Shown here: positions 10,246 to 62,454 of the stretch, in pieces
How the letters are laid out: every line of letters starts with the position of its first letter
How positions within the stretch are numbered: the first letter of the stretch is position 1
Virus record (IMG/VR): IMGVR_UViG_3300035701_000003
Source of the DNA: a virus
Length of the DNA stretch: 64,000 bases
Reading direction: 5' to 3' (one strand)
Notes under the pieces: model-generated
Told to the model about the DNA's origin: nothing
Seen by the model: only the letters and a program-made list of their open reading frames with translations
Database searches by the model: none
Made by a program: the position numbers and the translations under genes

Positions 10246-10259
10246 ATAAGGAAAGTAAT

Positions 10260-14093: not shown

Positions 14094-14107
14094 AATTAAT
14101 AGAGAAC

Positions 14108-14126: not shown

Positions 14127-14159
14127 TTCATAATATTTAAATATAAAGGAGAAAAAAGA

Positions 14160-18014: not shown

Positions 18015-18032
18015 ACAAGATAAGGTTTAATT

Positions 18033-24312: not shown

Positions 24313-24812
24313 TAACTTACTGGAATCAATTTATAGCTACATTCAAGGATATTTTATTAGCATCTTTGTTCTTTGCTATATGCGCATTTTTAAATGCTTC
24401 TATGGATGTAACTAAAGATAAATTTTCTTCTAGTGTTTACAGTAAAATCTCCGAACCCGGCACTGCCACTTATAAATACTTTGAAAGTGACTGGAGAAAC
24501 AAATGGGAAACCTGGCCAGATGGGGGGTTAATATTGGATAAGGATGGTAATAAGATTCCAAAATGGTTTTTAGGAATACATATTGTACCTTTGAATCACC
24601 CCATGTTTTTTGATAGTTGGCATCTGTTTAAATCTGCAATGGTATTTTTCTTTGGAGTAACATTAATTGTTCTTTATTTTAAAGCTGCTAAAATTATATT
24701 TAAATTTAATAAGTGGTATTACTGGGTCGTATTAGGAATAGTGTTAGTATGGTTCTTTCTCGACTGGAATATTGTGTTTAATCTATTTTATGATCATTGG
24801 CTAATGGTATGA
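24309..24812 (+). CDS. conserved phage membrane protein
   Basis: Three hydrophobic segments; the A.MD, W.NKW and D.WHLFK motifs resemble a family I recall from phages of FCB hosts. Confidence 0.6.
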   Translation: MITYWNQFIATFKDILLASLFFAICAFLNASMDVTKDKFSSSVYSKISEPGTATYKYFESDWRNKWETWPDGGLILDKDGNKIPKWFLGIHIVPLNHPMFFDSWHLFKSAMVFFFGVTLIVLYFKAAKIIFKFNKWYYWVVLGIVLVWFFLDWNIVFNLFYDHWLMV

Positions 24813-45238: not shown

Positions 45239-47476
45239 ATGGTTCCACTAGATCCTAAATTCTCTTCTGAAACTTTTGACTCTATTAACTGGGAGTTAGA
45301 TAATATTTTTACCTATGGAGCTAAAGACAACTATGATATTATTTCTAAACTTGTTATGAAGAGTTCTTTAGAAGACACTTTAAATATTAAGAATAATATT
45401 CTTTCCTACAAAGATTTCCCCGAGCGTATAAGAAAATTTACTAGAAATTACTTCGTTAGAGAGATAGAAGAGTTTCCAGATTTAGTAGAACATCTTGGTA
45501 CTTTAAAAGTATTTGCAGCTGAAAGACCTCATTATTATGATGCTGATATAGGAGCCGAATACTTTGAGACGCCTAATTTAATTTTATCTTATATTCCTTT
45601 GGATAACCTTTTTACTACGTATGCTAATGGTTTAGTTCACGAAATAGTACATTGCGTTCAGTACTTCTTGCAAAAGAAAGGAGTAGATGAGACAACACCC
45701 GACTATAATAATATTTGTTATAGTAAAGATAGTAAGTTCTATTTAGAAGATAAAGGAGAGAAGAAAGCTAAGGATGCTGAACTTGCCTTTGTTAAAGAAG
45801 CATGGCAAATACAACCCGACTTCGAAGAATTCGAAAAAATACTAAAACAACGCGGTTACTCTTATTATATTGATAACTATACTCTTATTATAGATTATAA
45901 AGGTTCTGTTAATCTTCCTTTTCTTACTACTCTTCCTGATAACATACAGTTTAATAATAAAGGTTTTGTTTATCTTTATTCTCTTACTACTCTTACTACT
46001 CTTCCTGATAACATACAGTTTAATAATAAAGGTTATGTTTATCTTTCTTCTCTTACTACTCTTACTACTCTTCCTGATAACATACAGTTTAATAATAAAG
46101 GTTATGTTGATCTTTCTTCTCTTACTACTCTTCCTGATAGCATACAGTTTAATAATAAAGGTTCTGTTTATCTTCCTTTTCTTACTCAATTACCTGAGAA
46201 CAAATATGATATATTTAAGAATGAAGGAATAGTATACTTATACTATAACCTCAGAAACGATAACTGGTCTAGATTCGACCCAAGATTAAGAGAAGGTAGT
46301 TTGAAATTAGGTTGGCAAATACAACCAGAAACTCTAGATGATTTTATTGGGTGTTTAGTAGATTATGAAGGTGCTGAAGCTATAGAATCTATAAATAGAT
46401 TCGGATTGATTACTCGTATAGAAAAATCTGATAGGCCGGGCGATGAACCCGGTACCTTAAAAGTTTGGGGATATTGGTCCGATGACCCGGAATATGTTAT
46501 GTATATGGTTCACTATTTTAATAGGGACAGATACTTTGCTGAAACTTTTTGGCCTATGCTTCCAGAAGATGCTAATAAATTGAAAGTTTTAAAGAGAGTA
46601 ATTAATTCTTCTCTTAAATTTTCTTGGTCTCAATTTCCCGCCTTTATTCAAGATTTACAAGAAGGGGATATTATTTGGGATGACGGTAACGATAAGTATA
46701 GAATTAAAAAAATAAATTATGAAGATAAAGAAGTATTATTAGAAGAAGTATTCGCCTCTGGTAATTTTGATGCGCCTTTTTGGATTAACGAACAAGATAT
46801 GCTAGAACATGGTTTTTATAAAGACCCTCCCCACGAGAGATTTCGAAGGGGTATGGAGAGTTCCCTTAAATTTTCTTCTCTTACTGATAAAAACGAACAG
46901 CTTTTCAATCAACGCTATAAAAACTATGGGGAAGATGGTGGAAATCTCTTCTGGAGTGATAAAGAGAATCAATATAAAAGATTCAAGTTACTATCCGATA
47001 TTGGTATACTTAATGAAGCCACCATATTAGATGTCGGTGTGGGGTTTGGCGATTTACTGGATTACTTCGAAGAAAGCAATATTAAACCTGAAAAGTACTT
47101 GGGAATTGACGTCGTTCCCGCTATAATTCAAATAGCAAAGAAAAAACATACAGAATATCCTTTTTATGTTAGAGATATAGTTAAAGAACCCTTTCCCGAG
47201 AATTCCTTTGATTTTTGTATAGGTTCGGGTTTATTTGCACTTAATGATAAGGACTGGAGTGAATCTGTTGTAAATTTAGTTAAATCTATGTATAATACTT
47301 GTAAAAAAGGAGTTGCTGTTAACTTTCTTTCTGGTAAAGTATTAAGTGATATGTTTAGGACTACTACTAAGGAAGAAATATTTAAGTTGACTAAAGATAA
47401 TGTTACAAATGATATGAAGATTATAGAGTCTAATGATATAGAAGATATCACCCTTTATTTGTATAAACAGGAGTAA
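45239..47476 (+). CDS. tag-delimited polyvalent protein: HExxH metallopeptidase-like, LRR-like, shared module, SH3/Tudor-like and class I SAM methyltransferase modules
   Basis: LVHEIVH (45638); linkers at 45794, 46289, 46607 and 46856; ILDVGVGFGDL and GIDVVP...FDF..GSG in the last module. Confidence 0.8.
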   Translation: MVPLDPKFSSETFDSINWELDNIFTYGAKDNYDIISKLVMKSSLEDTLNIKNNILSYKDFPERIRKFTRNYFVREIEEFPDLVEHLGTLKVFAAERPHYYDADIGAEYFETPNLILSYIPLDNLFTTYANGLVHEIVHCVQYFLQKKGVDETTPDYNNICYSKDSKFYLEDKGEKKAKDAELAFVKEAWQIQPDFEEFEKILKQRGYSYYIDNYTLIIDYKGSVNLPFLTTLPDNIQFNNKGFVYLYSLTTLTTLPDNIQFNNKGYVYLSSLTTLTTLPDNIQFNNKGYVDLSSLTTLPDSIQFNNKGSVYLPFLTQLPENKYDIFKNEGIVYLYYNLRNDNWSRFDPRLREGSLKLGWQIQPETLDDFIGCLVDYEGAEAIESINRFGLITRIEKSDRPGDEPGTLKVWGYWSDDPEYVMYMVHYFNRDRYFAETFWPMLPEDANKLKVLKRVINSSLKFSWSQFPAFIQDLQEGDIIWDDGNDKYRIKKINYEDKEVLLEEVFASGNFDAPFWINEQDMLEHGFYKDPPHERFRRGMESSLKFSSLTDKNEQLFNQRYKNYGEDGGNLFWSDKENQYKRFKLLSDIGILNEATILDVGVGFGDLLDYFEESNIKPEKYLGIDVVPAIIQIAKKKHTEYPFYVRDIVKEPFPENSFDFCIGSGLFALNDKDWSESVVNLVKSMYNTCKKGVAVNFLSGKVLSDMFRTTTKEEIFKLTKDNVTNDMKIIESNDIEDITLYLYKQE
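45899..46200 (+). repeat. 60/69-bp in-frame LRR-like tandem repeats (LTTLPDNIQFNNKG.V.L..)
   Basis: About five units; two carry an extra CTTACTACT 9-mer. Confidence 0.9.
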
Positions 47477-47478
47477 GA

Positions 47479-50400
47479 TTGGATAAGGTTTTTGTAAGTA
47501 AAGTTTCCGCTTTACTTAATAACAGAGAAGGCAGACCGATTAATGAAGAAGATATTTATCAATATTTAACTTCTCAAGGTTATCCTATATCGTCTATGGA
47601 GGATTTAAAAATCGACCTCCACGAGATGTATAGTAAAGGTTTCATTTATCCTTACCAAGGTTATTGGTATCCCACCTATCATTCCGAAGTTTGTGGTGCT
47701 GCTAATATTTCTCCAGATTCTAAAAATACTTTTAGATATCCAGCGGTTCAATATAGTTCTTTATTAACTAACTATGAAAAAGTAAAACCCGAAACTAGAG
47801 ATAAATATAAGGAGGAGTGGAAAGATAAATTAACTAAGTATTATGATTACTTTAAGAAGAGCCATCCTGAGTATAGTAACTTCTTTAAGTGGGTAGACCA
47901 AAGTTCGCCTAATTATTATGAATTTATAAAAGACGCTATGGCTATATTCTTACAAATGAATATGGAGCATAATAATATTAAATACCCTGGTACTCAGTAT
48001 TCCATCCCCGATGAGTTGACTACTATAGAGCACGCTATGAACGAGGCTGTTTATAGATTAACTACTTTTATGAAGAAGGAACATGGGGCTAAAGTTATTT
48101 CCCCGGACATTTATAGAAAAGCTTATGATAATGTAGCTGAGTTATCTGCTGAGATTCAATCTAAATTTATACTGGAAGTAATTTCTACTTCTCCTTCTGG
48201 TACTGTTATATCAGCAGATACTGTTAAAAAGTTTACTGAAACGGCTTTAAAGAAAAATCTTCCTAAGGAAGTCTCTCCTGATTTCTTTCTTAACGTAATA
48301 GAAGGAAAGTTGTCTAATCTAAAGCATTCTAAAGAAAAAGGGGTATTTTTATATAATACTTCAGCAACTACTATTGCTACTTACTTACAAGATGCTTTAC
48401 TTAAGAGTCCCGAATTTGTTAGTGCTTGGAATACCTTTATGAAAACTAAAGGTGGTTTCCAGGGTAAAGCCGATCAAATAACTACTAAAGTTTGGTCTGG
48501 TATTACAGCACCTGGTATTGATTTCTTTAAAGAAAAAGGATTAGATTTAGAGAAAGTAACTATAAGTAATTCTAATCTTAGTAATTGCAATTTTACTAAC
48601 GCCGACCTTTCTGGAACTTCTATAACCAATTGTAACTTACGTGGTAGTTTATTTAAGGAGAGTGTTTTTAAACCCTCTACTTTTACAGGTAATGATATTA
48701 CTAAGATGGACGTAGACGGCGCTGTTTTAAGTAAAAATATAACGTGGGATGAGAATAAGGGGCAACCTATTAACTTAGTTTACCGAGAAGTATCTTATGA
48801 TAAAAAGGACTTAGATAATATTGTAAAAAGCCCACAGGTATACTCTTACGCCTTCCCTTTGTCAGAGGCCGAAGAAGGAGACGCTTTAAATTTAGTTTAT
48901 GCATTGAAGGGTTATTTAGATAGTCTTCAAATACTTAGTTTTAAAAAGAATAACTTACTTAAACTTGGATGGCAAATACAACTCGAATTCTCTAAATTTG
49001 AAAATATTTTAAAAAATAAAAACTATTCTTATTATATTGATAACTATACCCTTATTATAAATCACAAAGGATATGTTGACCTTGATGCTCTTACTCAATT
49101 ACCTGAGAACATACAATTTAACAACAAAGGATATGTTAACCTTAATTCTCTTACTCAATTACCTGAGAACACGCAATTTAACAACAAAGGAGATGTTGAA
49201 CTTCGCTCTCTTACTCAATTACCTGAGAACATACAATTTAACAATGAAGGATATGTTTCCCTTGATTCTCTTACTCAATTACCTGAGAACATACAATTTA
49301 ACAATGAAGGATATGTTTCCCTTGATGCTCTTACTCAATTACCTGAGAACAAATATAATATATTTAAGAATGAAGGGGAAGTATTATATAACCTCAGAAA
49401 CTATATATGGTTGGAATTTGACCCAAGAGTAAGAGAAGGTAGTTTGAAATTAATTAAAACTTCTTCTTTATCTGATAATGAAATAACTTCATTAAAGAGT
49501 TGGTTAGAGTCACCTGAAAATATTCCTGATATAGAAGCAGAAGATTTAAGGAAGTGGTTAGCTGATAAAAATAAATCTGGCGAATTAACCGAAGCTGGTT
49601 TTAATAGAAAAGATATTAATTTACTTTTTGGAAGAGCTTCTACTTTAACAGGAGGACCAAAAAAACCCCCTTCTGAAATAGCCCGGGATAAACGAAATGA
49701 ATTATCTCAGAATTTCGCTAAAGCATATGGAGGTAAAGATAGTATTCCTAAAACGGCTCTCCTTGGAGTACTAACTAATAATGAAGGTAATTTATATGAT
49801 TGGTTGCTGGACTTGCCTGATAAAGTTACTTATAAGGATATTTTTAACCTTTATCATGCATTACTATCTTCTCTTAAGCAATTCCACCTTACCTCTGGAG
49901 CGACTACTTTAACTAGGAAATACGAACACCTTCCTTATACTACTTATGTAACCGACCTTTCTGATACTGAACGGGGCGTATCCGGTAAAGGTACTCAATT
50001 TGGAGTAGCCTTAGTACCTATTTACAATCTTATGCCAAGTGGAGTAGCAGAGGTTGCTCAGAGAGCTGTACATGAGGGTACTACTCACATGTATGAAGGA
50101 TTAGCTTTTTCTAGGATAGCTCCTGTAATATACCACGAAATTAGAAGTGGCGTAAAAGGAAAAATATTTAAAAAGGTTTGGGCTATAAGCGAGATGCAAT
50201 CGGATTCTTACCAAAAGTCTGGTAAATCGGAGGACCCCGACTCTAAAGAAGTAGGCGACGAGCGAGAAAATTTACATAAAGAATATTATAAGACAGAGGC
50301 TGAATTAGATAAGGCTATGAAGAATTTTCGTAGATATACACATCATTGGCCTGAAAATTTATTAAATGCTATTATTGAATTGGCCCAAAAGCACAACGTT

Positions 50401-53400
50401 GATGAAATTTGGATGCCTACTAGTAAGGATGTAGTTATGAAGACTGGCAAAAATGAATATACTCAAGAGGCTTGGTATAAATATTATGATAGACCCGCTA
50501 AAACCTTCGGGGGTAAGTTAAAGAACGTCGGGGCAGATATATCACTAGACCCTGGTTCAAGTTATTCTCATAAAAGGGCAGAATGGTATGTAATTCCCGT
50601 GAAGAAACAGACTAAAGAAGGAAGTCTAAATTTTTCATCCCAAGATCCTTCCTTTAATGATTATGATTCTACTCGTAATGATTTCTTTATGTACGATAAA
50701 GACCAACCCTCCGGTAATGACTCTCTTGATATGCAGCAGTCTTATTATACGGACTTAATGTATTTGAAGGATACTGATAAAGAGAAAAAAGAAAGAGACT
50801 CTCTTGATTGGACTGGAAGAGAAAATTTACAATTAGGTTTCGGTTCTCTTAAACTCTCTTGGCAAGAGCAGCCTGAAGAACGTCACTTTTATGACATTTA
50901 TATAAGAACAGAACAAGGTAGATTACTTCCTATTACTACTGTTTATGCAGTTGATAAGGAACAAGCCTTGAAAGAAGGTAAAAGTTCCGCACAAAGGTCT
51001 TCTATTGTCAGAAGAGTAATGAATTACGAGGAGAACTATACTTTTGTAGCAATAGAAAAAAAATCTTCTTCTCTCAAATTTTCTAACGATATCTATTTTG
51101 ATTCGACTCCTTCTGAAGATACTACTCCAGAAGAGAGAAACTTTACAAACCCCCTTCCCGATAAAAAACTTAGAAGAACCGACCCTAAGAAATACGATAG
51201 GAGACATGATTGGTATTCTCAATCCCCAGACTCCGAAGTAAGTAATAGATATGATAATTCTATTCCTTTAGAGGCTAGTTTGAAATTAGGTTGGACTTTT
51301 CAACCTCCTGTAATAGCTAAAGATTTATATGAATCTGGAGAATGGTTAAAATATATTCCCCGCAGTATGAAACCCGCTAAATCTCGAAAGTATATAGTAG
51401 GGGAACCTGTTTACATTACAATTGGGGGTAACAAACCTGTTTATCCCGATGTTTTTTATTTCGTGGGTTCTTGTAATAGTCCCTATACTGGTTATTATAT
51501 ACTTGTTAATGATAAAGGAGAAATTAGAAGAAGTAATAATATTAAAAAAGTAGAAGAAGTCAATCCTAAACTTATTGAGAAATTGAGGAAAAAGAAAACT
51601 TCTTCTCTTAAATTAGGTTGGAGAACTACCCCGGAACTTGGTACTTTGGATGCTCTCAAGAATTTCATTTCTACTATGGAACCTAACGTTAGGTATAAAT
51701 TTCCTAATTACCCTTATGAAGGAATAGAACTTGAATATGAGGATCCTGATGATGAAGGTATAATGCTATATACCTGGACTTTGCAACGTAACTGGGATTA
51801 CATACAAATGCCCGGACCAGTGTTTCCTTTGCATGGTAATATGGTAGTTTTTTGGAGAAAAAGGCAAAGTGCTGAAAAATCTTTATACAAGGAATTGAAA
51901 TGGTTCTATGATGAAACTACTGGGGAATTAAGCGAACGATGGAAAAATAAAAAGACCAGTTCTCTTCACTTTGGTTGGAAAATGCCCGAAAATATTAATG
52001 AAATTGCTAAAATGTTAGTAGCTCCTGAAAACTGGTATATAAGAACTTTTGTAAATAAAAAAACACGCGCGCTTATTCTTTATTTAGATGAGAAATTTAT
52101 AGAAAAATACGAAAAAGGATATGATAGAATGAGGGCTATGGAATATTCGCCTCTTCCAAAGGGGACTCTCGATAGTGCTGTAAATAGTATTAAGGAGCAA
52201 CTGGATAATTATGGAATGACTAACTATACTGTAAAGGTAGATAAAGACTTCCCGCATGCTATACGATTTTACTTTCCAATAGAAAGAACTTCTCTTAAGA
52301 CTCCTTGGAAAGACGTAATGAAGGAGATTAAGGAAAAATATGATAGATATGTTATGTGGGTTCAGAATAATATAGGTGGTTATTCTCTTTTAATTAGCCT
52401 GACACCGCGTAGCCCTAAATTAAAAGAAATAGTTGATTTATTAAGAGATCGTACTGGTATAGAACCCGAAGTAGTATCTCCAGGAGGACCTCCTCATTAC
52501 GGACCCTCTACTAGAATTTATATTACAACTCCTATTACTTCTTCTCTTAAACTCGGCTGGCAGCTATTTAATGATATAGAAGTAGGCGATACAGTAGAAG
52601 TGATTAAAGAGATAAGTGATGGCAGTTATAGATTACACATTGGTACTAGAGGTGAGGTCGACAATATACAAACTAGCACCCCTAGCTTTAATAGAATGGG
52701 TATAACTGTTTATATGTTTAGAGATAGAGATGTACAAAGACCAGAGCATTGGTATGTATTTTCAGATGAAGTAAAAAAGGTTACAGAAAGCTCTCTTCAC
52801 TTTAGTTGGCAAGTACAACCAGATGTTAATAATCTTTCCGGAATAGATTTAGCCCGGGCGCTCTCTACAGATGGTTGGCGTTATGTATACGACTCCGGAG
52901 CGAGACATTTTTACTTAGAAAACGATAATAATCATTATATTATTTTCCTACCTTATGATTTTGAAAAAGATGAATCCGGCATTAGAGAAGAAATGGGCTT
53001 AGTGGCGGATCCTTATAAGAAATGGATGATACAAGTAGGAAATGAATTTAAAGGTACTATAGATATGGAATATGTACCTACTATAGCGGAAGCTATACGA
53101 ATAATTGGGGAATGGAAACAGAAATACATCCGTAAAAACGACCCGAGAAGGGCGTCTCTTAAATTCTCTGATTTACAAGACTACCCTTGGGATGAAATAA
53201 AACATAACCTCGAACATCATTTTGATTACATTATAAATGAAAACCGAAAGAAATTCCCCGATGTAGAAGAGTATGTTACTGATGAGATGATGGCGCAATT
53301 CGCCTACAAAACCTTTTTTATGGAATATAATATTCCAGGTGTGTGGAGAGGAGACCCTGAATTTGTTGATGAAGTAAAAAGAATTATTAAAGATGATTTA

Positions 53401-56199
53401 GGTTATAAGATTTACAGTCCTCCTTATATTGACTGGTTTCACTGGATACAAAAGGCCTGGGACGATATAAGATATTTTTTAAAGAACCAAAGAGAAAATA
53501 TAGCCCCTGATATGAATGTTTCTGATCAAGAGTTAGCGAGGGACTGGTTAAAACTATGGCAAGAAGAGAAGCAAGTGCCAATGGATATTCAAAGAGCCGT
53601 TTGGTATCATAGTGTATTTCTAAAGGCTATTCAAATTATGTTCGAAGATAAGGGTTTAGGTGATGTATTAGGTACTGAATATCAAGCACCCCAATCTCCA
53701 GAGGAAAGAACCGAACAGATTTTGAGACCGAATACTGGAGTTAACGAAGATGAAGGAGACATACCCGTTGATAGAGAAGGCAACCCAATACCGAAGGAGG
53801 AAGATATATGGGCAGGTACTAATTATAAACCTTCTAAAGAAGAAGTACCAACTGAAGAAGTTCCCGAAGTAAATACTGATGAACTTTTAGATGAATTACA
53901 TGATGCTATAAGTAAAGGAGATACAGCTAAGGCTGATGAGATAAAAAAGAAATTAAATGGATTACAAAGTAAATCCTCCTTAAAACTAGACGGAAATTAT
54001 GATGATGAAGAAGAGAGAGAAGAAGATTATTTTAGCACTAAAGGGGACATCTCTCATTCTGATGAAAATGCTCTCATGGTAGTTTTGAATACTTACGGTA
54101 AAGACTTAAATATTAAAGATATCCAGAAGGAATTACTTATAAACGGTATTTTAGCAGAGCAATTACTAACCGATATCTTAGAAGAATCTTACCCCGATAC
54201 ATATTTATTAAAATTCTGGAGGGCTTTCCATAAAAAGTATCCGCAATGGGATTATATTTTAAAAAACAGTATGTTTGATAGTGAGGGTAATCAAATACCT
54301 TTTCATAATATAAGAGAATCTTCTCTTAAACTATCTGGGCTTACTCCAGATGATATTTTTTCTGGTTATCCTTTTATATATGATAAAAAAACACATCGGC
54401 TTTATGTAGGTGAATATAACAGCACTCATCAGGAGATGCCTGAGCTATATTCTGGGGAATTAAAAGAATACGGGGTAGGTTTACAGAGACAGGAAGATCT
54501 GCAAGATAACTACAATATGGGAATAAAATACATACAGGGGAGAGTTTCTGGCGGTAAAGACACCGTAGCTTTTTGGGAGCAATCATCTCCTACTGTAGAT
54601 AATAAAGATGATTATACCGATTGTATCTTTCAACTTCAACAAAAGGAAGTAGTAGGTTCAAATCCTTACATATACTTTACAGGAGGTTATAAAAGATCCT
54701 TTAAAGATTTTGTAGAGTTTCCGGCAAGAGAAGCAAGTCTTAAACTCTCTTGGCAAGTACAACCAGAAACTAAAATAGAAGTTGGTGGTATAAAACATAG
54801 AATACTTCAAGTTATTTGGAAGTCTCCGGATCATATAGGTAAGTATATTGATATACAACCTGTTTACGGGCAAGCTTTTCAATACTTCAGTCAATTACAA
54901 GATAAAGGATGTGTAGAGAGAGTAGCGCCTGGTAGGTATGCGCTTACTCTTACGGGTAGAACGATTCTCGAAATTTTAAATGGTAGAAAAGCTTCCTTAA
55001 AGTTTAGTTGGGAAGTACAACCTGAAACATATACTGTATCCCCCGAAGACTGGAATAAGCATTTAGAAGAAACCGTATTGTATTTAACGACAGTGCAGTT
55101 CCGTTCCGAGGCTCTTTTTTGGAGGGTTATGAGAGGAATTGCTTCTACTAATCATACTGTACTTACACCTGAATTACTTTATGCAGGAGATTCTTATAAA
55201 GACGCTAAAAAGTTTGTTAATGAATATGTAAACTATGATTTTTATTTTATATCGAGAGGGGAATACGATTATTTACAGAAAAATAAGAAGCAATCCAGTC
55301 TCGTGTTTAATATAGATAAGAAAGGACAAGAAAATGAGCAAAATAGTGGAAGCCAAACGCCCCAAATCCCCCAAGAAACCCAAATACAATTGGAAGAGAA
55401 GCACCACGAGAAAGCTAATGAAGAAACATCACAGCACCTTCAAAAAACTGTCATAAGTTATCCTACTCTTTATGATATAATAAGGGAGCACGATGATATA
55501 ATACAAGAATTCGGAGGGCTTCAGGGGATATTAGCCGGTGGAGAAAATAGAATAGAAGCAGCTATCGGCAGAATGCAATCCGGTTTTGGTGATCTAGAGT
55601 TCTATGTTAGTGTTTTAGAAAAAGCTGCTGTACTATGCCATTCAATAGTTACGACGCATCCCTTTAATGACGCAAATAAAAGAATTGCTTTTATGTCTGT
55701 AGTACATTTCTTATATGATAACGGGTTTGCTTTGGGGGAAGCGGATACTTTTGGGGATATTATTATACAAGTAGCTGATAACAACGCTGGTTATGAACAT
55801 TTGATTCAATGGTTACAGGCTAATGCTAAAGAAATAGAAAGTACTCAAGGAGAAACTTTAGAGAAACTAACTTGGAAAGTACTCGACCCTCAAGCAGAGG
55901 AAATTGATGTAATTCAAAAACTCTTTCCCGGAGCTAAGTTAATAGTTTTTGATAATATAGATGGTCAAGGAACCTCAGAAGTTAACGTTCTAGTTAAGGA
56001 TTTCTTGAAAAAGTTTCCGGCCGAAACTGATTACTTTTTGGATGATTGGAAAGAAACAGAATATGGAGGATATACCTGGAATATTAGTGATGATGATCGT
56101 ATGTATATATCTACTTTTATTCACGGCCCGAGCGAAGAAAACACAATGTCTAGTCTCATATTAAAAAATACAATATTAGAATTTAAAGAAGGTGAATGA
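47479..56199 (+). CDS. 2906-aa tag-delimited polyvalent protein (wHTH-like, pentapeptide repeat, LRR-like, SH3-like and Doc/Fic modules)
   Basis: TTG start; about 18 linkers between 48958 and 55878; pentapeptide repeats at 48541-48760; HPFNDANKR at 55657-55683. Confidence 0.85.
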   Translation: MDKVFVSKVSALLNNREGRPINEEDIYQYLTSQGYPISSMEDLKIDLHEMYSKGFIYPYQGYWYPTYHSEVCGAANISPDSKNTFRYPAVQYSSLLTNYEKVKPETRDKYKEEWKDKLTKYYDYFKKSHPEYSNFFKWVDQSSPNYYEFIKDAMAIFLQMNMEHNNIKYPGTQYSIPDELTTIEHAMNEAVYRLTTFMKKEHGAKVISPDIYRKAYDNVAELSAEIQSKFILEVISTSPSGTVISADTVKKFTETALKKNLPKEVSPDFFLNVIEGKLSNLKHSKEKGVFLYNTSATTIATYLQDALLKSPEFVSAWNTFMKTKGGFQGKADQITTKVWSGITAPGIDFFKEKGLDLEKVTISNSNLSNCNFTNADLSGTSITNCNLRGSLFKESVFKPSTFTGNDITKMDVDGAVLSKNITWDENKGQPINLVYREVSYDKKDLDNIVKSPQVYSYAFPLSEAEEGDALNLVYALKGYLDSLQILSFKKNNLLKLGWQIQLEFSKFENILKNKNYSYYIDNYTLIINHKGYVDLDALTQLPENIQFNNKGYVNLNSLTQLPENTQFNNKGDVELRSLTQLPENIQFNNEGYVSLDSLTQLPENIQFNNEGYVSLDALTQLPENKYNIFKNEGEVLYNLRNYIWLEFDPRVREGSLKLIKTSSLSDNEITSLKSWLESPENIPDIEAEDLRKWLADKNKSGELTEAGFNRKDINLLFGRASTLTGGPKKPPSEIARDKRNELSQNFAKAYGGKDSIPKTALLGVLTNNEGNLYDWLLDLPDKVTYKDIFNLYHALLSSLKQFHLTSGATTLTRKYEHLPYTTYVTDLSDTERGVSGKGTQFGVALVPIYNLMPSGVAEVAQRAVHEGTTHMYEGLAFSRIAPVIYHEIRSGVKGKIFKKVWAISEMQSDSYQKSGKSEDPDSKEVGDERENLHKEYYKTEAELDKAMKNFRRYTHHWPENLLNAIIELAQKHNVDEIWMPTSKDVVMKTGKNEYTQEAWYKYYDRPAKTFGGKLKNVGADISLDPGSSYSHKRAEWYVIPVKKQTKEGSLNFSSQDPSFNDYDSTRNDFFMYDKDQPSGNDSLDMQQSYYTDLMYLKDTDKEKKERDSLDWTGRENLQLGFGSLKLSWQEQPEERHFYDIYIRTEQGRLLPITTVYAVDKEQALKEGKSSAQRSSIVRRVMNYEENYTFVAIEKKSSSLKFSNDIYFDSTPSEDTTPEERNFTNPLPDKKLRRTDPKKYDRRHDWYSQSPDSEVSNRYDNSIPLEASLKLGWTFQPPVIAKDLYESGEWLKYIPRSMKPAKSRKYIVGEPVYITIGGNKPVYPDVFYFVGSCNSPYTGYYILVNDKGEIRRSNNIKKVEEVNPKLIEKLRKKKTSSLKLGWRTTPELGTLDALKNFISTMEPNVRYKFPNYPYEGIELEYEDPDDEGIMLYTWTLQRNWDYIQMPGPVFPLHGNMVVFWRKRQSAEKSLYKELKWFYDETTGELSERWKNKKTSSLHFGWKMPENINEIAKMLVAPENWYIRTFVNKKTRALILYLDEKFIEKYEKGYDRMRAMEYSPLPKGTLDSAVNSIKEQLDNYGMTNYTVKVDKDFPHAIRFYFPIERTSLKTPWKDVMKEIKEKYDRYVMWVQNNIGGYSLLISLTPRSPKLKEIVDLLRDRTGIEPEVVSPGGPPHYGPSTRIYITTPITSSLKLGWQLFNDIEVGDTVEVIKEISDGSYRLHIGTRGEVDNIQTSTPSFNRMGITVYMFRDRDVQRPEHWYVFSDEVKKVTESSLHFSWQVQPDVNNLSGIDLARALSTDGWRYVYDSGARHFYLENDNNHYIIFLPYDFEKDESGIREEMGLVADPYKKWMIQVGNEFKGTIDMEYVPTIAEAIRIIGEWKQKYIRKNDPRRASLKFSDLQDYPWDEIKHNLEHHFDYIINENRKKFPDVEEYVTDEMMAQFAYKTFFMEYNIPGVWRGDPEFVDEVKRIIKDDLGYKIYSPPYIDWFHWIQKAWDDIRYFLKNQRENIAPDMNVSDQELARDWLKLWQEEKQVPMDIQRAVWYHSVFLKAIQIMFEDKGLGDVLGTEYQAPQSPEERTEQILRPNTGVNEDEGDIPVDREGNPIPKEEDIWAGTNYKPSKEEVPTEEVPEVNTDELLDELHDAISKGDTAKADEIKKKLNGLQSKSSLKLDGNYDDEEEREEDYFSTKGDISHSDENALMVVLNTYGKDLNIKDIQKELLINGILAEQLLTDILEESYPDTYLLKFWRAFHKKYPQWDYILKNSMFDSEGNQIPFHNIRESSLKLSGLTPDDIFSGYPFIYDKKTHRLYVGEYNSTHQEMPELYSGELKEYGVGLQRQEDLQDNYNMGIKYIQGRVSGGKDTVAFWEQSSPTVDNKDDYTDCIFQLQQKEVVGSNPYIYFTGGYKRSFKDFVEFPAREASLKLSWQVQPETKIEVGGIKHRILQVIWKSPDHIGKYIDIQPVYGQAFQYFSQLQDKGCVERVAPGRYALTLTGRTILEILNGRKASLKFSWEVQPETYTVSPEDWNKHLEETVLYLTTVQFRSEALFWRVMRGIASTNHTVLTPELLYAGDSYKDAKKFVNEYVNYDFYFISRGEYDYLQKNKKQSSLVFNIDKKGQENEQNSGSQTPQIPQETQIQLEEKHHEKANEETSQHLQKTVISYPTLYDIIREHDDIIQEFGGLQGILAGGENRIEAAIGRMQSGFGDLEFYVSVLEKAAVLCHSIVTTHPFNDANKRIAFMSVVHFLYDNGFALGEADTFGDIIIQVADNNAGYEHLIQWLQANAKEIESTQGETLEKLTWKVLDPQAEEIDVIQKLFPGAKLIVFDNIDGQGTSEVNVLVKDFLKKFPAETDYFLDDWKETEYGGYTWNISDDDRMYISTFIHGPSEENTMSSLILKNTILEFKEGE
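49066..49350 (+). repeat. about 4.7 x 60-bp in-frame LRR-like tandem repeats (LTQLPENIQFNN.G.V.L..)
   Basis: Exact 60-nt periodicity at 49081, 49141, 49201, 49261 and 49321. Confidence 0.95.
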
Positions 56200-56201
56200 A
56201 T

Positions 56202-58196
56202 ATGGCAAAACCACGAATAACCGGCGGACCACCGAAAATTATATTGCCAGGCGCGGAGAGTAATTTCAAACAAGTTATAGCGTCTCAAAATGAAGGGACC
56301 CCGGGAAATAAATTTGCTAACGCTGCTAAGGCCCCTGTAAGAGGTTACGGTAATACTAATATTTCGCGAGACTCTATTCTCAAAACAGCTTCTTATTTAG
56401 ATGTAACTAGAAATGCCCCTTTATTTAATGATCCGCGTTACACCAGTAGTACCCTTTCTATTCCTACAGATAATAGAACTTTGCATGGTTTATATCGTTT
56501 CTTCACGGAAACTGACCCTATCGTAGGAGCCTCTTTAAAGATGCATTCGGAGTTACCGCTGGCTAATGTTGCCCTTGGTACTTGTGAGGACGAGGGTATT
56601 CAAAGACATTTCGATGCTATGTGGGATAGAATTAACGGTACTAAGTTATTAACAGATATGGTATCTGAGTATTATGAAATTGGAGATTGCTTCCCCTTCG
56701 GCGCGTTTAATGAAACCGATTATATGTGGGATCAATTTGCTATTTTGAACCCCGATTATGTTAAGATAGAATCTACCTGGTTGAATCAAAATCCTTTAAT
56801 TAAACTTATTCCAGACGAGAACTTAAAGAAAATAGTACAAACGAGAAGTCCAAGATTTATTTATGATCAACTTCCGCAAGAAATAGTCCGTTACGTATTA
56901 TTTAATAGAGAGATTCCTTTAGACCCTAATAATGTATTTCATATTTCTCACGCAAAGAGACCTTATGAATTAAGAGGCAGGTCTTTAATAAAGAGAATTC
57001 TCAAAACGTTAATGTTAGAAGATAGATTTAATCAAGCCAATTTTGCATTAGCTACTAGGCACGCAGTTCCTTTGACTGTAGTTAAGGTCGGCGATCCTAC
57101 TACTGGTTGGACGCCCAATGAAGAAGAATTAAACGCTGTGAGAGATTTGTTCGCCGCGTGGGAGTTGGACCCAAATTTTAGCATCTTCTACCACTATGGG
57201 ATTGACGTTCAATTTTACGGCTCTAATGGAAGGGCGCTCCCAGTAGGCCCGGAACTAGATAGAATATATAGATTAAAGTTTATTGGATTACAAGTTCACG
57301 AACAGTTACTAGCTGGCGGCGGTGGTAGTTACTCTCAAGCTTATATTAATTTGGAAGTACAAAGACAAAGATATTTAAATTTACAATTAAAACTCGAACA
57401 ATTTTTACACGAAGGTTTATTTAAACCTGTTGCCGACCTTTGCGGTTTCTATAGAGTCCATAATAGTACTACTTCTGGACATGGTGGTGTTAAGAAATAC
57501 TCTTACGGTAAAGAAGATGATTTCCAAAAGAGATTATTAAAGCAGTTTACTACTTTAAGAGATTTAAAAGATAACGAGGAATTTTTAAGATACGTCAGAA
57601 GTAAGTTAGCTGAGTATGAAGAGAATACTAATAAACAAGAAAGAGAATATGTATTTCCTAAGATTGATTGGGGGGCAATGTCTGCAGCTAGTGATGAGAA
57701 TCTAAAGAATTATGTTAAATGGTTATCGAAAGAAAGACCTTATTTAATAGATGATGCTACCTTGGCTAGACTAGCTAAATTAGATAGAGATACTCAAGAA
57801 GATGCTTATATAGAAGATTTAAGAAGAGCTAAGACTAGATTTACAGAAGTTAATAAAGAAGGTTTATTACCTTTTGCACAATCAAGAACTGGTAAAGGCG
57901 GTGGAGACTTTGGAGGAGATGTTGGAATGCCTTTGGATATGGGCGGGATGCCCGCTGGGGGAGGACCTGGGGCTGGAGGACTTGGAGAAGGTGAAGTTCC
58001 TAATGTTCCTGCCGGGGCCGGTGGACCTCCCGAGACAGCCGGTGGTCAAGTAGCACCTGCTGGAACAGAAGCTTCTATAAAAGAAAGTACCGTTTTAGAT
58101 GATAGGTTCATTACTAGTGAAAATAAATCATTACTAAAAGAAAAAGAGAACTGGAGTAAAGCTATTGCTGAAGCTATTATTATAAAACCAGAATAG
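56202..58196 (+). CDS. probable portal protein
   Basis: DPIVGASLKMH, LNPDYVKI and FH......RG.S...R motifs typical of portal folds; G/P-rich C-terminus; directly upstream of the protease. ORF from 56196. Confidence 0.7.
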   Translation: MAKPRITGGPPKIILPGAESNFKQVIASQNEGTPGNKFANAAKAPVRGYGNTNISRDSILKTASYLDVTRNAPLFNDPRYTSSTLSIPTDNRTLHGLYRFFTETDPIVGASLKMHSELPLANVALGTCEDEGIQRHFDAMWDRINGTKLLTDMVSEYYEIGDCFPFGAFNETDYMWDQFAILNPDYVKIESTWLNQNPLIKLIPDENLKKIVQTRSPRFIYDQLPQEIVRYVLFNREIPLDPNNVFHISHAKRPYELRGRSLIKRILKTLMLEDRFNQANFALATRHAVPLTVVKVGDPTTGWTPNEEELNAVRDLFAAWELDPNFSIFYHYGIDVQFYGSNGRALPVGPELDRIYRLKFIGLQVHEQLLAGGGGSYSQAYINLEVQRQRYLNLQLKLEQFLHEGLFKPVADLCGFYRVHNSTTSGHGGVKKYSYGKEDDFQKRLLKQFTTLRDLKDNEEFLRYVRSKLAEYEENTNKQEREYVFPKIDWGAMSAASDENLKNYVKWLSKERPYLIDDATLARLAKLDRDTQEDAYIEDLRRAKTRFTEVNKEGLLPFAQSRTGKGGGDFGGDVGMPLDMGGMPAGGGPGAGGLGEGEVPNVPAGAGGPPETAGGQVAPAGTEASIKESTVLDDRFITSENKSLLKEKENWSKAIAEAIIIKPE

Positions 58197-58215: not shown

Positions 58216-59226
58216 ATGTTAATAAAACAAGCCATACAAGAAGTTAGAGCTATCCCTTTGAATTCTATATACTCTAAACAGGAGAAAAGAGTAGTTCCTA
58301 TAAATACAAATGAGTTTCGATATCTTCGATTTAGAGCTATTGGTAATATGGAGGTATCCGGTTTTAATGGAAATCTTGATGGTTTTCCTTATGAGTACTT
58401 TGAAGATGATGAACCCGGGTATGGCTATAAATCTTTTAGAGGGAAGAGAGCCCATCATGAACACAATAGTAATCTTGGAGTAGTAGGTAGTATAGGAGAT
58501 TTACCAGATGCTTATTTAAATAAATTTAATTACCCAGAAGATGTACCTGAAAAGAAATGGGCTTCCTTATTAAATAAAGTATCTGATTCTAAGAGAATAG
58601 CTATTTTACAGATGCCCGGTCAAAAGTTAGGGGATATAGAAGTGTTGATGCGTATAGATACTACTCTTTTGAAAAGTTCTTCTTTAGATAAAAAAGTAAA
58701 ACAAGCTCTCGAAAGAATAGTTAGGATGATAGACACCGGCCAGAGTTTAAGTTGTTCTATGGGTACTAACGTTCAGTACAGTGTTTGCAGCGCTTGTGGT
58801 AATGAGGCGAGATTCGCATCGGATTATTGCAACCACCTTTCTAAGAGAAAAGGCGCTTTAACAGTAGTTACTGCTAATGAATTGAGAGACCTTTTAGATA
58901 AAGGAATACTAAGACCTGAGTGGTTAAAACATATTACTACTTCTAAATACGATGCTAAGGATGTAGTGGAAGGAATTAGTAATAGAGGTGTTCCCGTAAA
59001 GAATGGAGAATTAAATCATAAACTATCCTTCTTTGAATTATCTATTGTTGGAATCCCCGCATTTCTCGATGCAAAAATGTTAGAGAAACTGGCAAAGAAA
59101 GCCGAAGGCGATAGAAAGACTTATTTAGATTTATTGCGAAAAGAAATAGGAGATGATAACTTATTAGATATTTATGGGTTGTTACAAGATGATGGTATAA
59201 TTTCAAGTCAATGTCAAGTATACTAA
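58216..59226 (+). CDS. probable prohead (capsid maturation) protease with Zn-finger insertion
   Basis: AAGGAG RBS; N.N.DGF, H.EH, SMG..V..S.CS.CGN...C.HL and FFELS.V..PA...A. Confidence 0.7.
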   Translation: MLIKQAIQEVRAIPLNSIYSKQEKRVVPINTNEFRYLRFRAIGNMEVSGFNGNLDGFPYEYFEDDEPGYGYKSFRGKRAHHEHNSNLGVVGSIGDLPDAYLNKFNYPEDVPEKKWASLLNKVSDSKRIAILQMPGQKLGDIEVLMRIDTTLLKSSSLDKKVKQALERIVRMIDTGQSLSCSMGTNVQYSVCSACGNEARFASDYCNHLSKRKGALTVVTANELRDLLDKGILRPEWLKHITTSKYDAKDVVEGISNRGVPVKNGELNHKLSFFELSIVGIPAFLDAKMLEKLAKKAEGDRKTYLDLLRKEIGDDNLLDIYGLLQDDGIISSQCQVY

Positions 59227-59227
59227 A

Positions 59228-59551
59228 ATGGAAAAGACGTCTTTAAGTTTTGAAGATTACTTAAATACAGATATTTCTGATGTTATTTATAAAGATCACA
59301 AGTATAATTTATCTAATAAAACTGTTAATATTATTGTTACTAGTCCTTTTGACGTAGAAGACGATACAAATAACCTAATATCTCTAGAAGCTGGTGATAG
59401 ACTAATTATAACAGGATTACGGCCGGATTTTTATGAGATGAAATACAATGAAATTACAGTTTATCAACATTATAAAATAGTAGATAAAAATACTGTACTA
59501 AGTAAGCAAATAGAAGGTAATTGGAGAGAGGTGTTACAATGTTTAAAATGA
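59228..59551 (+). CDS. hypothetical protein (SH3-like segment)
   Basis: 107 aa; SLEAGDRLII; C-terminal GNWREVL. Confidence 0.65.
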   Translation: MEKTSLSFEDYLNTDISDVIYKDHKYNLSNKTVNIIVTSPFDVEDDTNNLISLEAGDRLIITGLRPDFYEMKYNEITVYQHYKIVDKNTVLSKQIEGNWREVLQCLK

Positions 59552-60393
59552 CTATTAAAAAAATCGGAAACCTTTATCAAATAGATGATAATGAGACTCC
59601 TATAGACTCTGCGACCCTCAGAAACACATTGGCATCTCTTACTAATTCTGATGATCCTAAGGTAAGTAAAATAATGGATGATATTGATGAAAAAGAAGAG
59701 ACTTCTTTAGAAATTCAAGGTAGCAAAGGAGTGGTAGTTGATTTATATGAAGTAGATTATCAATCAGCAGACCCTATGAAAGAAACTCAAAATTTAGCGA
59801 AGAGTTTAAATGAAAAAAGAGATTTTGTAACTCAATATTTGTTTCCGGATAGTACTACTGATGATGTTTTAGTGGGATTAAGGCAAGATGTTTTAAAAGG
59901 ACAGGATCAATCCCAACCAACTAGAGGTCCCCAGGAACAAGAACCTGCGAGACTTTCCAATTTAGAAAGTATGAGTTCTCTTTTTCAACTTTCTTACGCC
60001 AGAGACTTAAGTGAGGACCAGAAACAAGATATCTTAGAAACACAGACTATTTCTTCAAATCTACTCTTTAGTAATCTTAAACTACAGCAGGATAATTGGG
60101 TTAGACTAAAAGCTAAAAGTAACAAGTTAAATATAGAAGCCCTCATTGGAACCGATACTTTCAGATATTTAATATCTTTACAAAAAGAAAGAGATGTGGA
60201 ACATTACAGTATAGATTATGCTTCTTTAGTTAAATTAGGAGTTAATCCTTTGGATTTAATTGATGTAGTAGAAGCGTGCCAGTTGGGGAGTCCTAGTAAA
60301 GTAGATGAAGATACTACATTAGATCAATTAATAAATGCATGCCAAGAACCGATAATACAAATATATGGCAGAAAGGTAAAGAGAAGTGGATAA
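59539..60393 (+). CDS. hypothetical acidic protein
   Basis: ORF from 59521; ATG at 59539 is the likelier start. Confidence 0.7.
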   Translation: MFKMTIKKIGNLYQIDDNETPIDSATLRNTLASLTNSDDPKVSKIMDDIDEKEETSLEIQGSKGVVVDLYEVDYQSADPMKETQNLAKSLNEKRDFVTQYLFPDSTTDDVLVGLRQDVLKGQDQSQPTRGPQEQEPARLSNLESMSSLFQLSYARDLSEDQKQDILETQTISSNLLFSNLKLQQDNWVRLKAKSNKLNIEALIGTDTFRYLISLQKERDVEHYSIDYASLVKLGVNPLDLIDVVEACQLGSPSKVDEDTTLDQLINACQEPIIQIYGRKVKRSG

Positions 60394-62452
60394 GTTAGAA
60401 GGTACAATTTTAGCAGATTACGACACTATTTACTTTGACCTCGATAAGACACTATGGGAGTGTTATACTTCTCAAGGTACTAGTATCGGCGCTTATGATA
60501 TGACTCCTCCTTTTGAATTAAAGACTGGAGTTATGATTAAGGATATAGAAGGAAATTTTTGTAAACTTCAAGACGGTATTAGAACTATATTACGGTTGCT
60601 AGATGAAAGAAACACTAATATGGGTACTTTAAGTAGCGGAGAGGCAGAGAACGTAACCTCAGGCGCTCAACCTTCTGTTTTACTTCTTAAGAAATTTGAT
60701 TTATATGGTTACTTTAATATGGGCGTTGTTTGTAAAAGAGGAATCGATAAAAGAGAATACGCTCTTCCTTTTGGAAAGACTTTACTTATAGACGACGACG
60801 ACGAAAATTTAGATAGCGTAAAAGAAAACGAATTAGTAGATATTTTAGATAGGAAGGCTTTTGAAGATTGGGATCAATTACTACAAAAGAAAACAAGTAA
60901 TTTAGTTTTAGGTTTATATTCTTTTTTAACTAAAAGAGCCCAAAAAGAATTTGAGTTTCGTTCTGGGGCTAGTATATTATTAGACTTATATAAAGCTGAA
61001 CTTGATTATACCCCGGCTAAAAGGAAACAAGGCGGCGAAGAAGAAGTATCCGATGAAGAAAACGTAAGATTTTTACAAAGTAAAAGTAATATACCAAGGT
61101 TATTTGAGGAGGCTGTTCAATATTTAAGAAATATGTTAAATGATACTATAGAATATAGTTCTAAAAGATCCGACTATATCACGGATAGCCAACTAGTAAT
61201 AACTACCTTCAGTGAAGCTTTGCGAGTATTAAACGAAACTTCTAAATATATTTATAATGCAGATCACTGGCCTCAAGTTTTTATAGTTATAGATAACGTA
61301 ATAAATCTCATGCATACTGATATGACTTTTATAGAGCATATATTATTATCTGATGAATCTACTTTAAGTAAATCTTATGAAGAACATATTGGAGCTGAAG
61401 CTATTACTTTCGAAGATAAAGATGACTTTGGATATTATCTTAATAAATTACAAGAAGAGTGGAATGAGTTTAAAGATTTTCTTATCCAGCAAGGTAAGAG
61501 TCTCCAGTTTACTTCCGAATCTAGTAAGTTATCTTGGCAAGAACATTTAGACCCGGAAAAGATTTATAATGGGGATATTGAGATGCCAGACCTTTTTTGG
61601 GAAGATATTCCTGATAAAGTACGGTGGTATTGTGAGGGTAGGGGTATATCTTATAGAGAAATGCCAGAAGCTATTAAGACTAGTTTTGATACTGCCCTAT
61701 TAAAGTGGGAAGCACGTTGGGAAAAGGAAAAGAAAAAACTTTCTTGGCAAACGCAACCCGAAGGCATGACAGAGGAGCAATTTTGGCAGATAATGGGCGC
61801 TAGTGATACACCGGCTAATGTTAGAAAGAGATTAAGAATGCTTACCCCCGAGCAATTGATTGTATATCAGGATATGTTTAATATTTTATTTACTAAAATG
61901 TTACCAGTTGTCCAGGATGAATGGATGGAAGCAAGTTCTGATAGTTTAGATTATTCTATATTTAATGTTATATATTCAGGGAAAGATGACTATTATTATG
62001 TTCTTGCTCATCCACGGTATATAAACAACGTAGGTGAATATGAAGAGGTTTCTTACTTTGCAGGAGAAATTTATGAGGAAAAAACTGGGGATGATAAGGC
62101 TTTTTGGGATGGTATTAAACCTTATGGAAGTTTGAAACTTGGTTGGCAAATACAACCCGAAGAACAAAATCCAAATTTATCTTTTCAGTATGATTTAATT
62201 AAAAAAGCTATAGAGAAGTTAGACTTCCTTGATTTTGGAGAACAGGATTTAGTACAGGATGCTATTTATGAAGCTAAAGAATACTTCGAAATGATAGGTA
62301 GTAATTACAATCTAAAAAATTTAAATCAAACTATGAATTTACTTGATAGAGTATACCAAATGTGCGGCATACCTTCTTTCCCTACAACTGAAGAAACTAG
62401 AAATCTAAGCAAAGCTCAAACTATAATAGATACTTTGATGGATAAGTTATAA
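60386..62452 (+). CDS. tag-delimited polyvalent protein: MDP-1-like HAD phosphatase and DUF4240-like module
   Basis: YFDLDKTLW (DxDxT, 60437), LSSG, LIDDDDEN; linkers at 61517, 61733 and 62126; MTEEQFWQIM...LTPEQL...SGKDDY. Confidence 0.75.
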   Translation: MDKLEGTILADYDTIYFDLDKTLWECYTSQGTSIGAYDMTPPFELKTGVMIKDIEGNFCKLQDGIRTILRLLDERNTNMGTLSSGEAENVTSGAQPSVLLLKKFDLYGYFNMGVVCKRGIDKREYALPFGKTLLIDDDDENLDSVKENELVDILDRKAFEDWDQLLQKKTSNLVLGLYSFLTKRAQKEFEFRSGASILLDLYKAELDYTPAKRKQGGEEEVSDEENVRFLQSKSNIPRLFEEAVQYLRNMLNDTIEYSSKRSDYITDSQLVITTFSEALRVLNETSKYIYNADHWPQVFIVIDNVINLMHTDMTFIEHILLSDESTLSKSYEEHIGAEAITFEDKDDFGYYLNKLQEEWNEFKDFLIQQGKSLQFTSESSKLSWQEHLDPEKIYNGDIEMPDLFWEDIPDKVRWYCEGRGISYREMPEAIKTSFDTALLKWEARWEKEKKKLSWQTQPEGMTEEQFWQIMGASDTPANVRKRLRMLTPEQLIVYQDMFNILFTKMLPVVQDEWMEASSDSLDYSIFNVIYSGKDDYYYVLAHPRYINNVGEYEEVSYFAGEIYEEKTGDDKAFWDGIKPYGSLKLGWQIQPEEQNPNLSFQYDLIKKAIEKLDFLDFGEQDLVQDAIYEAKEYFEMIGSNYNLKNLNQTMNLLDRVYQMCGIPSFPTTEETRNLSKAQTIIDTLMDKL

Positions 62453-62454
62453 TT

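Follow-up and report, generated by a model that had tools for sequence, protein, structure and literature searches.

The 64,000-nucleotide stretch of DNA analysed here (the window) belongs to IMG/VR virus record IMGVR_UViG_3300035701_000003 and comes from a contig of 176,978 bp, representing a large uncultured phage. Our subject is one plus-strand gene of this window, P0001, whose 2906-aa product is a string of modules separated by copies of a short peptide, which we refer to as the tag, and whose 3' end adjoins the genes of the portal and the prohead protease. Both this beads-on-a-string architecture, with its position beside head genes, and the view of the tags as functional junction signals are strongly supported, the latter by the module-wise homology and shuffling among relatives, the stand-alone and split versions of modules, the conservation of the peptide, and the placement of the linkers in coil.

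The polyprotein gene and its junction peptide

Under translation table 11, the 2906 codons of P0001 contain no in-frame stop, in agreement with the original prediction, made from the nucleotide sequence by itself, of a 2906-aa polyprotein with about 18 "tag" linkers; on the same ground, the idea that "tag" stood for TAG stop codons or an alternative genetic code is rejected. Translation starts at a TTG codon 2 nt past the stop of the upstream gene, with GGAG just 5' of it, and the resulting N-terminus, (M)DKVFV..., agrees with those of relatives opening MDNTFVQQV or MADSVFIQKV (MD..FV type). Fourteen of the modules measure 69-138 aa and the others 162, 187, 274, 394 and 492 aa, as had been anticipated (most 70-140 aa, a few about 160-400 aa), and the acidic modules that had been foreseen find their counterpart in acid-rich stretches with 30% Asp plus Glu. 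At the 3' end, the TGA stop (56197-56199) overlaps an ATG at 56196, so that the predicted ATGA overlap with the portal gene is literally present. However, a second ATG at 56202 is better spaced from a GGTGA Shine-Dalgarno sequence, and gene callers run on identical contigs give a portal protein of 664 aa. The start of the portal gene is thus ambiguous: it falls 4 nt ahead of the end of P0001 or 3 nt beyond it. The translational coupling proposed together with the overlap is plausible despite this ambiguity, given an overlap or 2-nt gap and a Shine-Dalgarno sequence within the last codons of P0001.

The tag conforms to the motif [KR]-x-[SAG]-S-L-K-[LF]-[SG]-W, often continued by Q-x-Q-P-E. Aligned by column, 31 copies from the window and two relatives have [KR] at position -4, often E at -3, [SAG] at -2, S at -1, L at 0, K at +1, [FL] at +2, [SG] at +3 and W at +4; the Q-x-Q-P-E tail follows about one third of them, and Glu occupies -3 in 12, the invariant core being free of Glu. 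P0001 holds 13 canonical and four degenerate copies as well as one second-half copy (Table 1), and each of the 18 linker positions originally listed carries the motif or a variant of it. The protein contains the string SL[KH][LF] 13 times, whereas 2000 shuffles lead to an expectation of 0.23 and never gave more than 3. A six-frame profile scan of the window gave 24 matches, all in coding frames of the plus strand; the four remaining frames had none, and shuffled sequence 0.1. Many of these sites had also gone into training the profile, so it is the difference between frames that is informative. The matches fall in six genes: 257-2425, 24797-27001, 45239-47476 (three copies), P0001, 60386-62452, and 62455 onward. 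The same scan found none in the portal and protease genes or in four genes of about 1300 codons at 6.4-22 kb; these last are consecutive (6421-22040), encode 1274-1335 aa and are tag-free. The codons of the tag vary synonymously, Ser being written as both TCN and AGY and Leu as both CTN and TTR, which argues that selection acts on the tag as a peptide. A strict back-translated tag pattern found 10 single matches in IMG/VR, close to the chance estimate, and is uninformative.

Residues 1255-1790 (M7-M11, 536 aa) were modelled with AlphaFold2 from an alignment of nine rows in which M11 had no aligned sequences. Overall confidence is low (mean predicted local distance difference test, pLDDT, 59.5; predicted template modelling score 0.33), with alpha/beta cores at pLDDT 65-93. 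Values below 50 are found at model residues 1-19, 118-125 and 236-249, which coincide with the canonical tags at residues 1267, 1376 and 1495, all in coil; the further segments below 50 are internal loops and M11. A Foldseek search with this model returned no significant fold. The site TSLKTPW (residue 1605; position 52288) lies in a confident, structured stretch of the model, and M9 and M10, which it would separate, are collinear in all relatives. For these two reasons we do not count it as a linker, so that the prediction of about 18 linkers stands except for this site (originally placed at 52285). It may be a former tag that was absorbed into a two-part module; relatives conserve it as [QS][PQS][IL]KTPWKD, and it never divides M9 from M10.

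Two of the functions originally assigned to modules were recovered in profile searches. Pentapeptide repeats in M1 (aa 356-389; family pattern A(D/N)LXX) match PF00805 at 33.5 bits (cutoff 20.2), and M18 is, as judged from its sequence, a Doc-type Fic domain and putative kinase toxin, with 42.1 bits against PF02661 (cutoff 24), a match to the Doc-like toxins of phrog_577, and the sequence HPFNDANKR at aa 2727-2735 (family motif H-x-F-x-[DN]-[AG]-N-[KG]-R). While M18 thus resembles Doc of Phd-Doc in passing the Pfam Fic threshold and in its motif, it differs in being a polyprotein cassette that follows a spacer rich in Gln and Glu and has no phd-like gene beside it. Of the supposed leucine-rich-repeat (LRR)-like module, the five tandem repeats of about 22 aa in M2 are real, but they have no Pfam LRR match. 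Pfam yielded no family for M3, M13 or the part of M1 outside the pentapeptide repeats, and a search for structural look-alikes of M13 gave no usable match. There were no Pfam matches to MuF, MPTase or ART in P0001, and no protease domain was detected inside it in Pfam and PHROG profile searches. Comparison of the whole protein with cultured phages by tblastn returned Doc matches only.

Table 1. Coordinates of P0001, its modules and tags, and of adjacent genes in the window.
Feature	Position	Strand	Basis
Multi-module polyprotein gene P0001, 2906 aa (putative polyvalent/cargo protein)	47479..56199	+	open frame; homologs P0003-P0005 and others share N-terminus and modules
Module M1 (aa 1-492), conserved core; pentapeptide repeats at 48544-48714	47479..48954	+	16 relatives aligned end to end; PF00805 3e-8
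Canonical tag NLLKLGW(QIQ)	48952..48972	+	motif/profile scan
Module M2, five tandem ~22-aa repeats of LPENIQFNNKG type (LRR-like label, no Pfam support)	48955..49440	+	absent from P0003/P0004
Degenerate tag GSLKLIK	49438..49458	+	M3 homology begins here in 16 relatives
Module M3 (aa 655-1048), conserved core	49441..50622	+	16 relatives; no Pfam match
Degenerate tag GSLNFSS	50620..50640	+	motif
Canonical tag GSLKLSW(QEQPE)	50842..50862	+	motif/profile scan
Canonical tag SSLKFSN	51067..51087	+	motif/profile scan
Canonical tag ASLKLGW	51274..51294	+	motif/profile scan; coil, pLDDT<50 in model
Canonical tag SSLKLGW	51601..51621	+	motif/profile scan; coil, pLDDT<50 in model
Canonical tag SSLHFGW	51958..51978	+	motif/profile scan; coil, pLDDT<50 in model
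Degenerate, tag-like TSLKTPW, probably not a linker	52288..52308	+	structured stretch, higher pLDDT; M9-M10 always collinear; relatives QPIKTPW
Canonical tag SSLKLGW	52540..52560	+	motif/profile scan
Canonical tag SSLHFSW(QVQPD)	52789..52809	+	motif/profile scan
Canonical tag ASLKFSD, N-terminal edge of M13, ancestral junction	53152..53172	+	SSLKFSDL.DY in P0003, P0005, P0009, P0010, L028; degenerate in distant relatives
Module M13 (aa 1893-2166), most widespread; acid-rich tail, terminal helix	53155..53976	+	21 relatives including stand-alone P0015, P0026
Canonical tag SSLKLDG	53974..53994	+	motif/profile scan
Canonical tag SSLKLSG	54319..54339	+	motif/profile scan
Canonical tag ASLKLSW(QVQPE)	54733..54753	+	motif/profile scan
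Canonical tag ASLKFSW(EVQPE)	54991..55011	+	motif/profile scan
Degenerate tag SSLVFNI	55294..55314	+	SSLVFNI/SLVFNIKK kept in P0003/P0004
Doc-type Fic domain (predicted) within M18; HPFNDANKR at 55657-55683	55465..55713	+	PF02661 1.6e-10; phrog_577 4.5e-25; tblastn to Doc toxins of Streptococcus phages
Second-half tag KLTWKVLDPQAEE, end of Doc module	55864..55902	+	M18 homology stops here
C-terminal first-half tag MSSLILK, 10 residues before stop	56146..56166	+	P0001 ends ...MSSLILKNTILEFKEGE
Upstream 745-aa multi-module gene: HExxH...E zincin-like module, LRR-like repeats, two unknown modules, class I methyltransferase; three tags	45239..47476	+	profile searches, motif
Portal protein (start 56196 or 56202)	56196..58196	+	phrog_16240 3e-57; 32% identity to Bacillus phage G portal
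Prohead protease P0002, modelled assemblin/gp21 fold; invariant His83, Ser181	58216..59226	+	AlphaFold2 and structural comparison; 112 homologs
Two further tag-bearing multi-module genes (60386-62452; 62455 to beyond window end)	60386..63999	+	profile scan

Relatives, cassettes and split genes

An exhaustive HMMER search with M7-M15 matched only 37 proteins among 1.84 billion representatives, which makes the P0001 family a rare one; a metagenome scan with the M3 alignment gave only 5 loci. Homology to P0003, P0004, P0005 and other relatives runs module by module, with alignments spanning the first to the last residue of a tag-bounded module, and the order of the modules differs among P0001 and these three proteins (M7, for example, lies at 1918 in P0003 and M12 at 895 in P0004). 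When the proteins were compared by BLAST without prior segmentation, 96 of the 148 free ends of high-scoring segment pairs (HSPs) lay no more than 12 residues from a tag, where 16% would be expected (nominal p ~1e-39, though the HSPs are mutually dependent). A core of M1, M3 and M13 is conserved in 16-21 relatives, the remaining modules being cassettes. Stand-alone proteins of 98-316 aa exist for M8, M12 and M13; those homologous to M8 start and end exactly at the limits of the module and carry no tag, and in other polyproteins M8 has tags on both sides despite different neighbours.

The tag consensus recurs in relatives from other metagenomes, with 56 profile matches in 35,184 residues. A relative with a 61% identical protease has a variant of the tail, ...LKFAWEDDPE, and distant relatives have a shorter M1-M3-M13 protein with a few degenerate junction motifs. 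In at least six relatives, the methyltransferase gene is likewise followed by polyprotein, portal and protease, in this order.

Some relatives distribute the content of P0001 over two genes. At loci L028, L030 and L031 the core gene stops shortly past a first-half tag. For L030 and L031 it is a complete gene with a real stop, its product ending ...ASSLKLY and ...LSSLNFTNVAKVLRK, where a few residues follow the half tag; between it and the portal gene sits a separate gene. At L028 and L031 the separate gene carries homologs of M4 and of the Doc module, and at L028 and L030 it opens with MRGYLW[QE]..., a second-half tag. As these split versions break at half tags, the 2906-aa gene corresponds to a fusion of the two adjacent genes of its relatives, joined and expanded at tags. 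The separate gene at L030 (7427-9007), in the interval between core gene and portal, has precomputed Pfam matches to 2',5'-RNA-ligase/Acb1-like families, internal tags and a C-terminal GSLKFTEN; these matches suggest cargo directed against signalling, of the type that counters the cyclic-oligonucleotide-based antiphage signalling system (CBASS), in the P0001 family.

Half tags also stand at the natural ends of proteins. First-half tags occur within the last 30 residues of 8 of 38 family proteins, against a background of 5% (p ~7e-4); an enrichment of second-half tags at the N-termini of P0001 homologs was not significant (2 of 38). In the window, second-half leaders of the form M-x-NWRxxL[SG]WQxQPE begin stand-alone open reading frames (ORFs) at 2429, about 5796, 6058 and 22040, and tag-like N-terminal variants are found in those at 24809 and 27868. 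These leaders are reminiscent of the capsid-targeting sequence of T4.

What the junction peptide may do

What do these observations suggest about the role of the tag? Being conserved at nearly every junction, selected as a peptide, shared among several genes and genomes, and exposed in coil, it must be recognised by a common partner. We lean, if only a little, towards a phage protease that cleaves it, since the alternation of fused and split cargo at tags would most readily be neutral in a chain that is cut in any case. The polyprotein would then be produced late, together with the head proteins, and its cargo, a DNA-mimic-like pentapeptide repeat, a Doc-type kinase toxin and some 15 modules of unknown function, would be carried in the capsid. 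A phage endopeptidase would cut the [SAG]-S-L-K-[LF]-[SG]-W tags to free each module, and the freed modules would enter the next host cell along with the DNA. As free termini retain opposite halves of the tag, one site serving all three contexts would lie near K-[LF]-[SG]. Packaging, cut, enzyme and scissile bond are all steps that we infer. Of the viral-style polyprotein with about 19 products that had been proposed, the string of modules, the junction tags and the position beside head genes hold, while cleavage is an extrapolation, no protease of its own was detected, and the number of products, if there is cleavage, would be nearer 17-18, as the site at 52288 looks structural.

The enzyme that we slightly favour, while regarding the assignment as tentative, is the prohead protease encoded two genes downstream, which would act inside the prohead as do T4 gp21 and SPN3US gp245. 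On the evidence of its AlphaFold2 model (mean pLDDT 85), the product of 58216-59226 is an assemblin-fold prohead protease: the top four structural matches found with an exhaustive aligner were T4 gp21 (Z 9.1, root-mean-square deviation 3.0 over 132 residues) and the proteases of varicella-zoster virus (Z 8.4), Kaposi's sarcoma-associated herpesvirus (6.2) and human cytomegalovirus (6.1), and no variation is seen at His83 and Ser181 among 51 sequences. Sequence searches of PDB and Pfam, and a Foldseek search, gave no match for it. The arrangement is that of T4 gp21, phiKZ gp175 and SPN3US gp245, with an assemblin-fold protease beside the portal and cargo bearing short conserved signals, and the N-terminal leaders on small proteins of the window recall the capsid-targeting sequence of the T4 internal proteins and Alt. 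Several cuts per substrate also have a precedent in SPN3US, where gp245 cuts nine head and ejection proteins at 14 A/S/G-x-E sites (PMC10052503).

Several observations weigh against this assignment and against cleavage in general. The sites of the T4, phiKZ and SPN3US enzymes have the form x-x-Glu (L/I-x-E; A/S/G-x-E) and serve mostly for removal of N-terminal propeptides (PMC10052503, PMC5694885), whereas the core of the tag is without Glu, is longer (S-L-K-[LF]-[SG]-W) and separates whole functional modules. Those sites also occur in capsid, portal and protease, while the tag is absent from both portal and protease of the window. L018, a close relative, likewise lacks it in all three proteins, including a major capsid protein of 312 aa; the capsid comparison was made there because the window does not extend to its own capsid gene. 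Canonical tags are also missing where the protease of a relative is 51% or 42% identical, C-terminal tags followed by only 1-10 residues are needless for the mere separation of modules, and the multi-module model in which tags appear as coil is of low confidence (mean pLDDT 59.5).

In a second explanation, which we consider rather improbable, the chain stays uncut, and the tags are docking or address peptides for a common partner such as a packaging receptor, a scaffold, the portal, a chaperone or the inner capsid surface, each cassette having brought its own copy when it was fused. This would account for the half tags at the free N-termini of stand-alone ORFs and at natural C-termini (the 8 of 38 above), where there is nothing to separate. 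The alternation of hydrophobic and polar residues in the tag is beta-strand-like and could join the sheet of a partner, and some polyvalent proteins, such as the N4 virion RNA polymerase, are packaged intact (PMC5512222). However, a single address per chain would be enough, and yet a well-conserved full tag stands at nearly every junction; the SSLK half is absent from the N-terminal leaders; fused and split genes swap freely at tags; and the Doc toxin and other enzymes, tethered in a chain of 335 kDa, would have restricted access to their targets.

Alternatively, and a shade less probably still, the cut might be made by a zincin-like module encoded by the upstream gene, either in the producing cell or after ejection into a new host. 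This module (45239-45838, about 185 aa, with HEIVH at 45638-45652) ends in the second-half tag K-x-[SA]-W-[QK]-I and resides in a multi-module protein that bears tags itself. Its GLVHE-x-x-H and a Glu 36 residues further on are invariant in seven genomes. Pfam and PDB profile searches gave no match, so that it may represent an undescribed zincin-like family. Many zincins favour a hydrophobic residue immediately after the cut, which K-[LF] would supply. The invariant residues also match the active-site description of metallopeptidases in polyvalent proteins, whose metallopeptidase domains have been proposed as processors (PMC5512222). In every relative with available flank the module lies directly upstream of the polyprotein, an association that fails to discriminate between the two candidate enzymes, being seen wherever the flank is available. 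Against this candidate speak that its peptidase fold is suggested by the motif without a profile match to Pfam or solved structures, that it also stands beside the tag-poor polyprotein of L027, and that the N4 virion RNA polymerase has such a domain and is nevertheless packaged uncut (PMC5512222).

That the tags are evolutionary joints, serving as microhomology for recombination with little present function in the protein, is very improbable: module order and content do change exactly at tags and Leu(0) is encoded by CTT in 12 of 20 copies, compared with 27% in the gene as a whole, but the free synonymous variation (Ser TCN vs AGY) leaves no conserved DNA site, the peptide is kept across relatives whose modules are only 30-50% identical, and neutral scars would decay. 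A DNA recombination site was rejected on the same codon variation. Ribosomal skipping of the 2A type was likewise discarded, as it is not known in bacteria and the motif also occurs at N- and C-termini, where skipping is needless.

Cleavage and addressing could also be combined. Somewhat speculatively, the tag might be a portable two-part cargo code of this clade of large phages, by which any flanked domain would enter the capsid and be set free as an effector. The S-S-L-K-[LF] half would act at the C-terminal end of the preceding module; the other half, [LF]-[SG]-W-Q-x-Q-P-E, for which a sister lineage has W-E-E, would act at the N-terminal end of the module that follows. If true, such a code would account for cassettes that can be inserted, exchanged, fused into giant polyproteins or split into separate genes and still function, and dsDNA phages would have their own counterpart of polyprotein processing, coupled to capsid addressing.

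Among known systems, the content of P0001 fits the polyvalent virion effectors of Iyer, Burroughs, Anand, de Souza and Aravind (2017; PMC5512222), proteins of 2-15 domains predicted to be packaged, injected and processed by peptidases. Like these, P0001 strings together many unrelated, independently recurring domains (17-19 tag-bounded modules) and is encoded immediately upstream of portal and prohead protease in conserved synteny. Genes in its neighbourhood give matches to families from the same study, just under the cutoff for InPase (PF18823) and weakly for DarB-like. Unlike these proteins, P0001 has its roughly 18 modules joined by one conserved peptide, which recurs in other genes, at free protein ends and among related phages; that study describes no shared junction motif, and the word "linker" is absent from it (PMC5512222). 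No MuF domain was found in P0001, and the peptidase-like module lies in the adjacent gene. With the polyproteins of RNA viruses P0001 shares one long ORF, conserved junction sequences and, presumably, fixed proportions of its products; it differs in belonging to a dsDNA phage, in that its modules are accessory effectors where those of RNA viruses are replication or structural proteins, in the putative status of its cleavage, and in that no protease is recognisable in the ORF, the candidates being encoded by neighbouring genes as is not the case in classical viral polyproteins. MARTX-type toxins are likewise delivered as a chain of unrelated effector domains, which an internal protease releases at linkers once delivery is complete. 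This is an analogy of logic only, without any relationship in sequence or fold and with another delivery machine.

In the literature searched, we found no description of a conserved junction peptide in such phage cargo polyproteins. What appears to be new is one peptide punctuating some 17-18 cassettes, its use across genes and across a clade of large phages, the tag halves at natural termini, and the interchange of fused and split forms. Polyvalent effectors were predicted to be processed in 2017, and no cleavage signal has been defined since; the P0001 family provides a junction peptide that is precise, conserved and open to testing, along with two candidate enzymes and cargo that occurs naturally in both fused and split form. 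Should cleavage be real, tailed phages would use polyprotein logic to deliver about 18 effectors of host takeover and counter-defence in stoichiometric amounts, some 15 unknown effector modules would be catalogued with bounds given by sequence alone, and a short tag might serve to load chosen proteins into phage capsids. The tag also gives an annotation rule for cargo genes of uncultured large phages.

Further genes of the window

The tag-bearing genes that neighbour P0001 match Acid_PPase, DUF4240, SMODS (weakly), InPase and DUF6166; the InPase match (PF18823) reaches 26.6 bits, just under the cutoff of 26.8, and the DarB-like match is weak. Following the protease gene, an ORF of 107 aa (59228-59551) has a leader-like motif, ...GNWREVLQCLK, as its C-terminal sequence. 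The ORF after it (59521-60393; probable start MTIKKIGNLYQIDD) resembles the N-terminal domain of P0017 and P0022, both of which have an M8-type module. A 491-aa ORF at 34818-36293 has an HExxH motif (HELGH, aa 453) near its C-terminus and is possibly a metallopeptidase, unrelated to the module of the upstream gene.

An 837-aa ORF of the window (28210-30723) contains an intein splicing domain (PF14890, 1.2e-21), and in relatives the portal and protease are split by inteins with LAGLIDADG/Hint domains (L001:2456-5638, L001:5983-7893, L018:6617-9967 and L023:11691-14894); the portal and protease of the window itself run uninterrupted by inteins.

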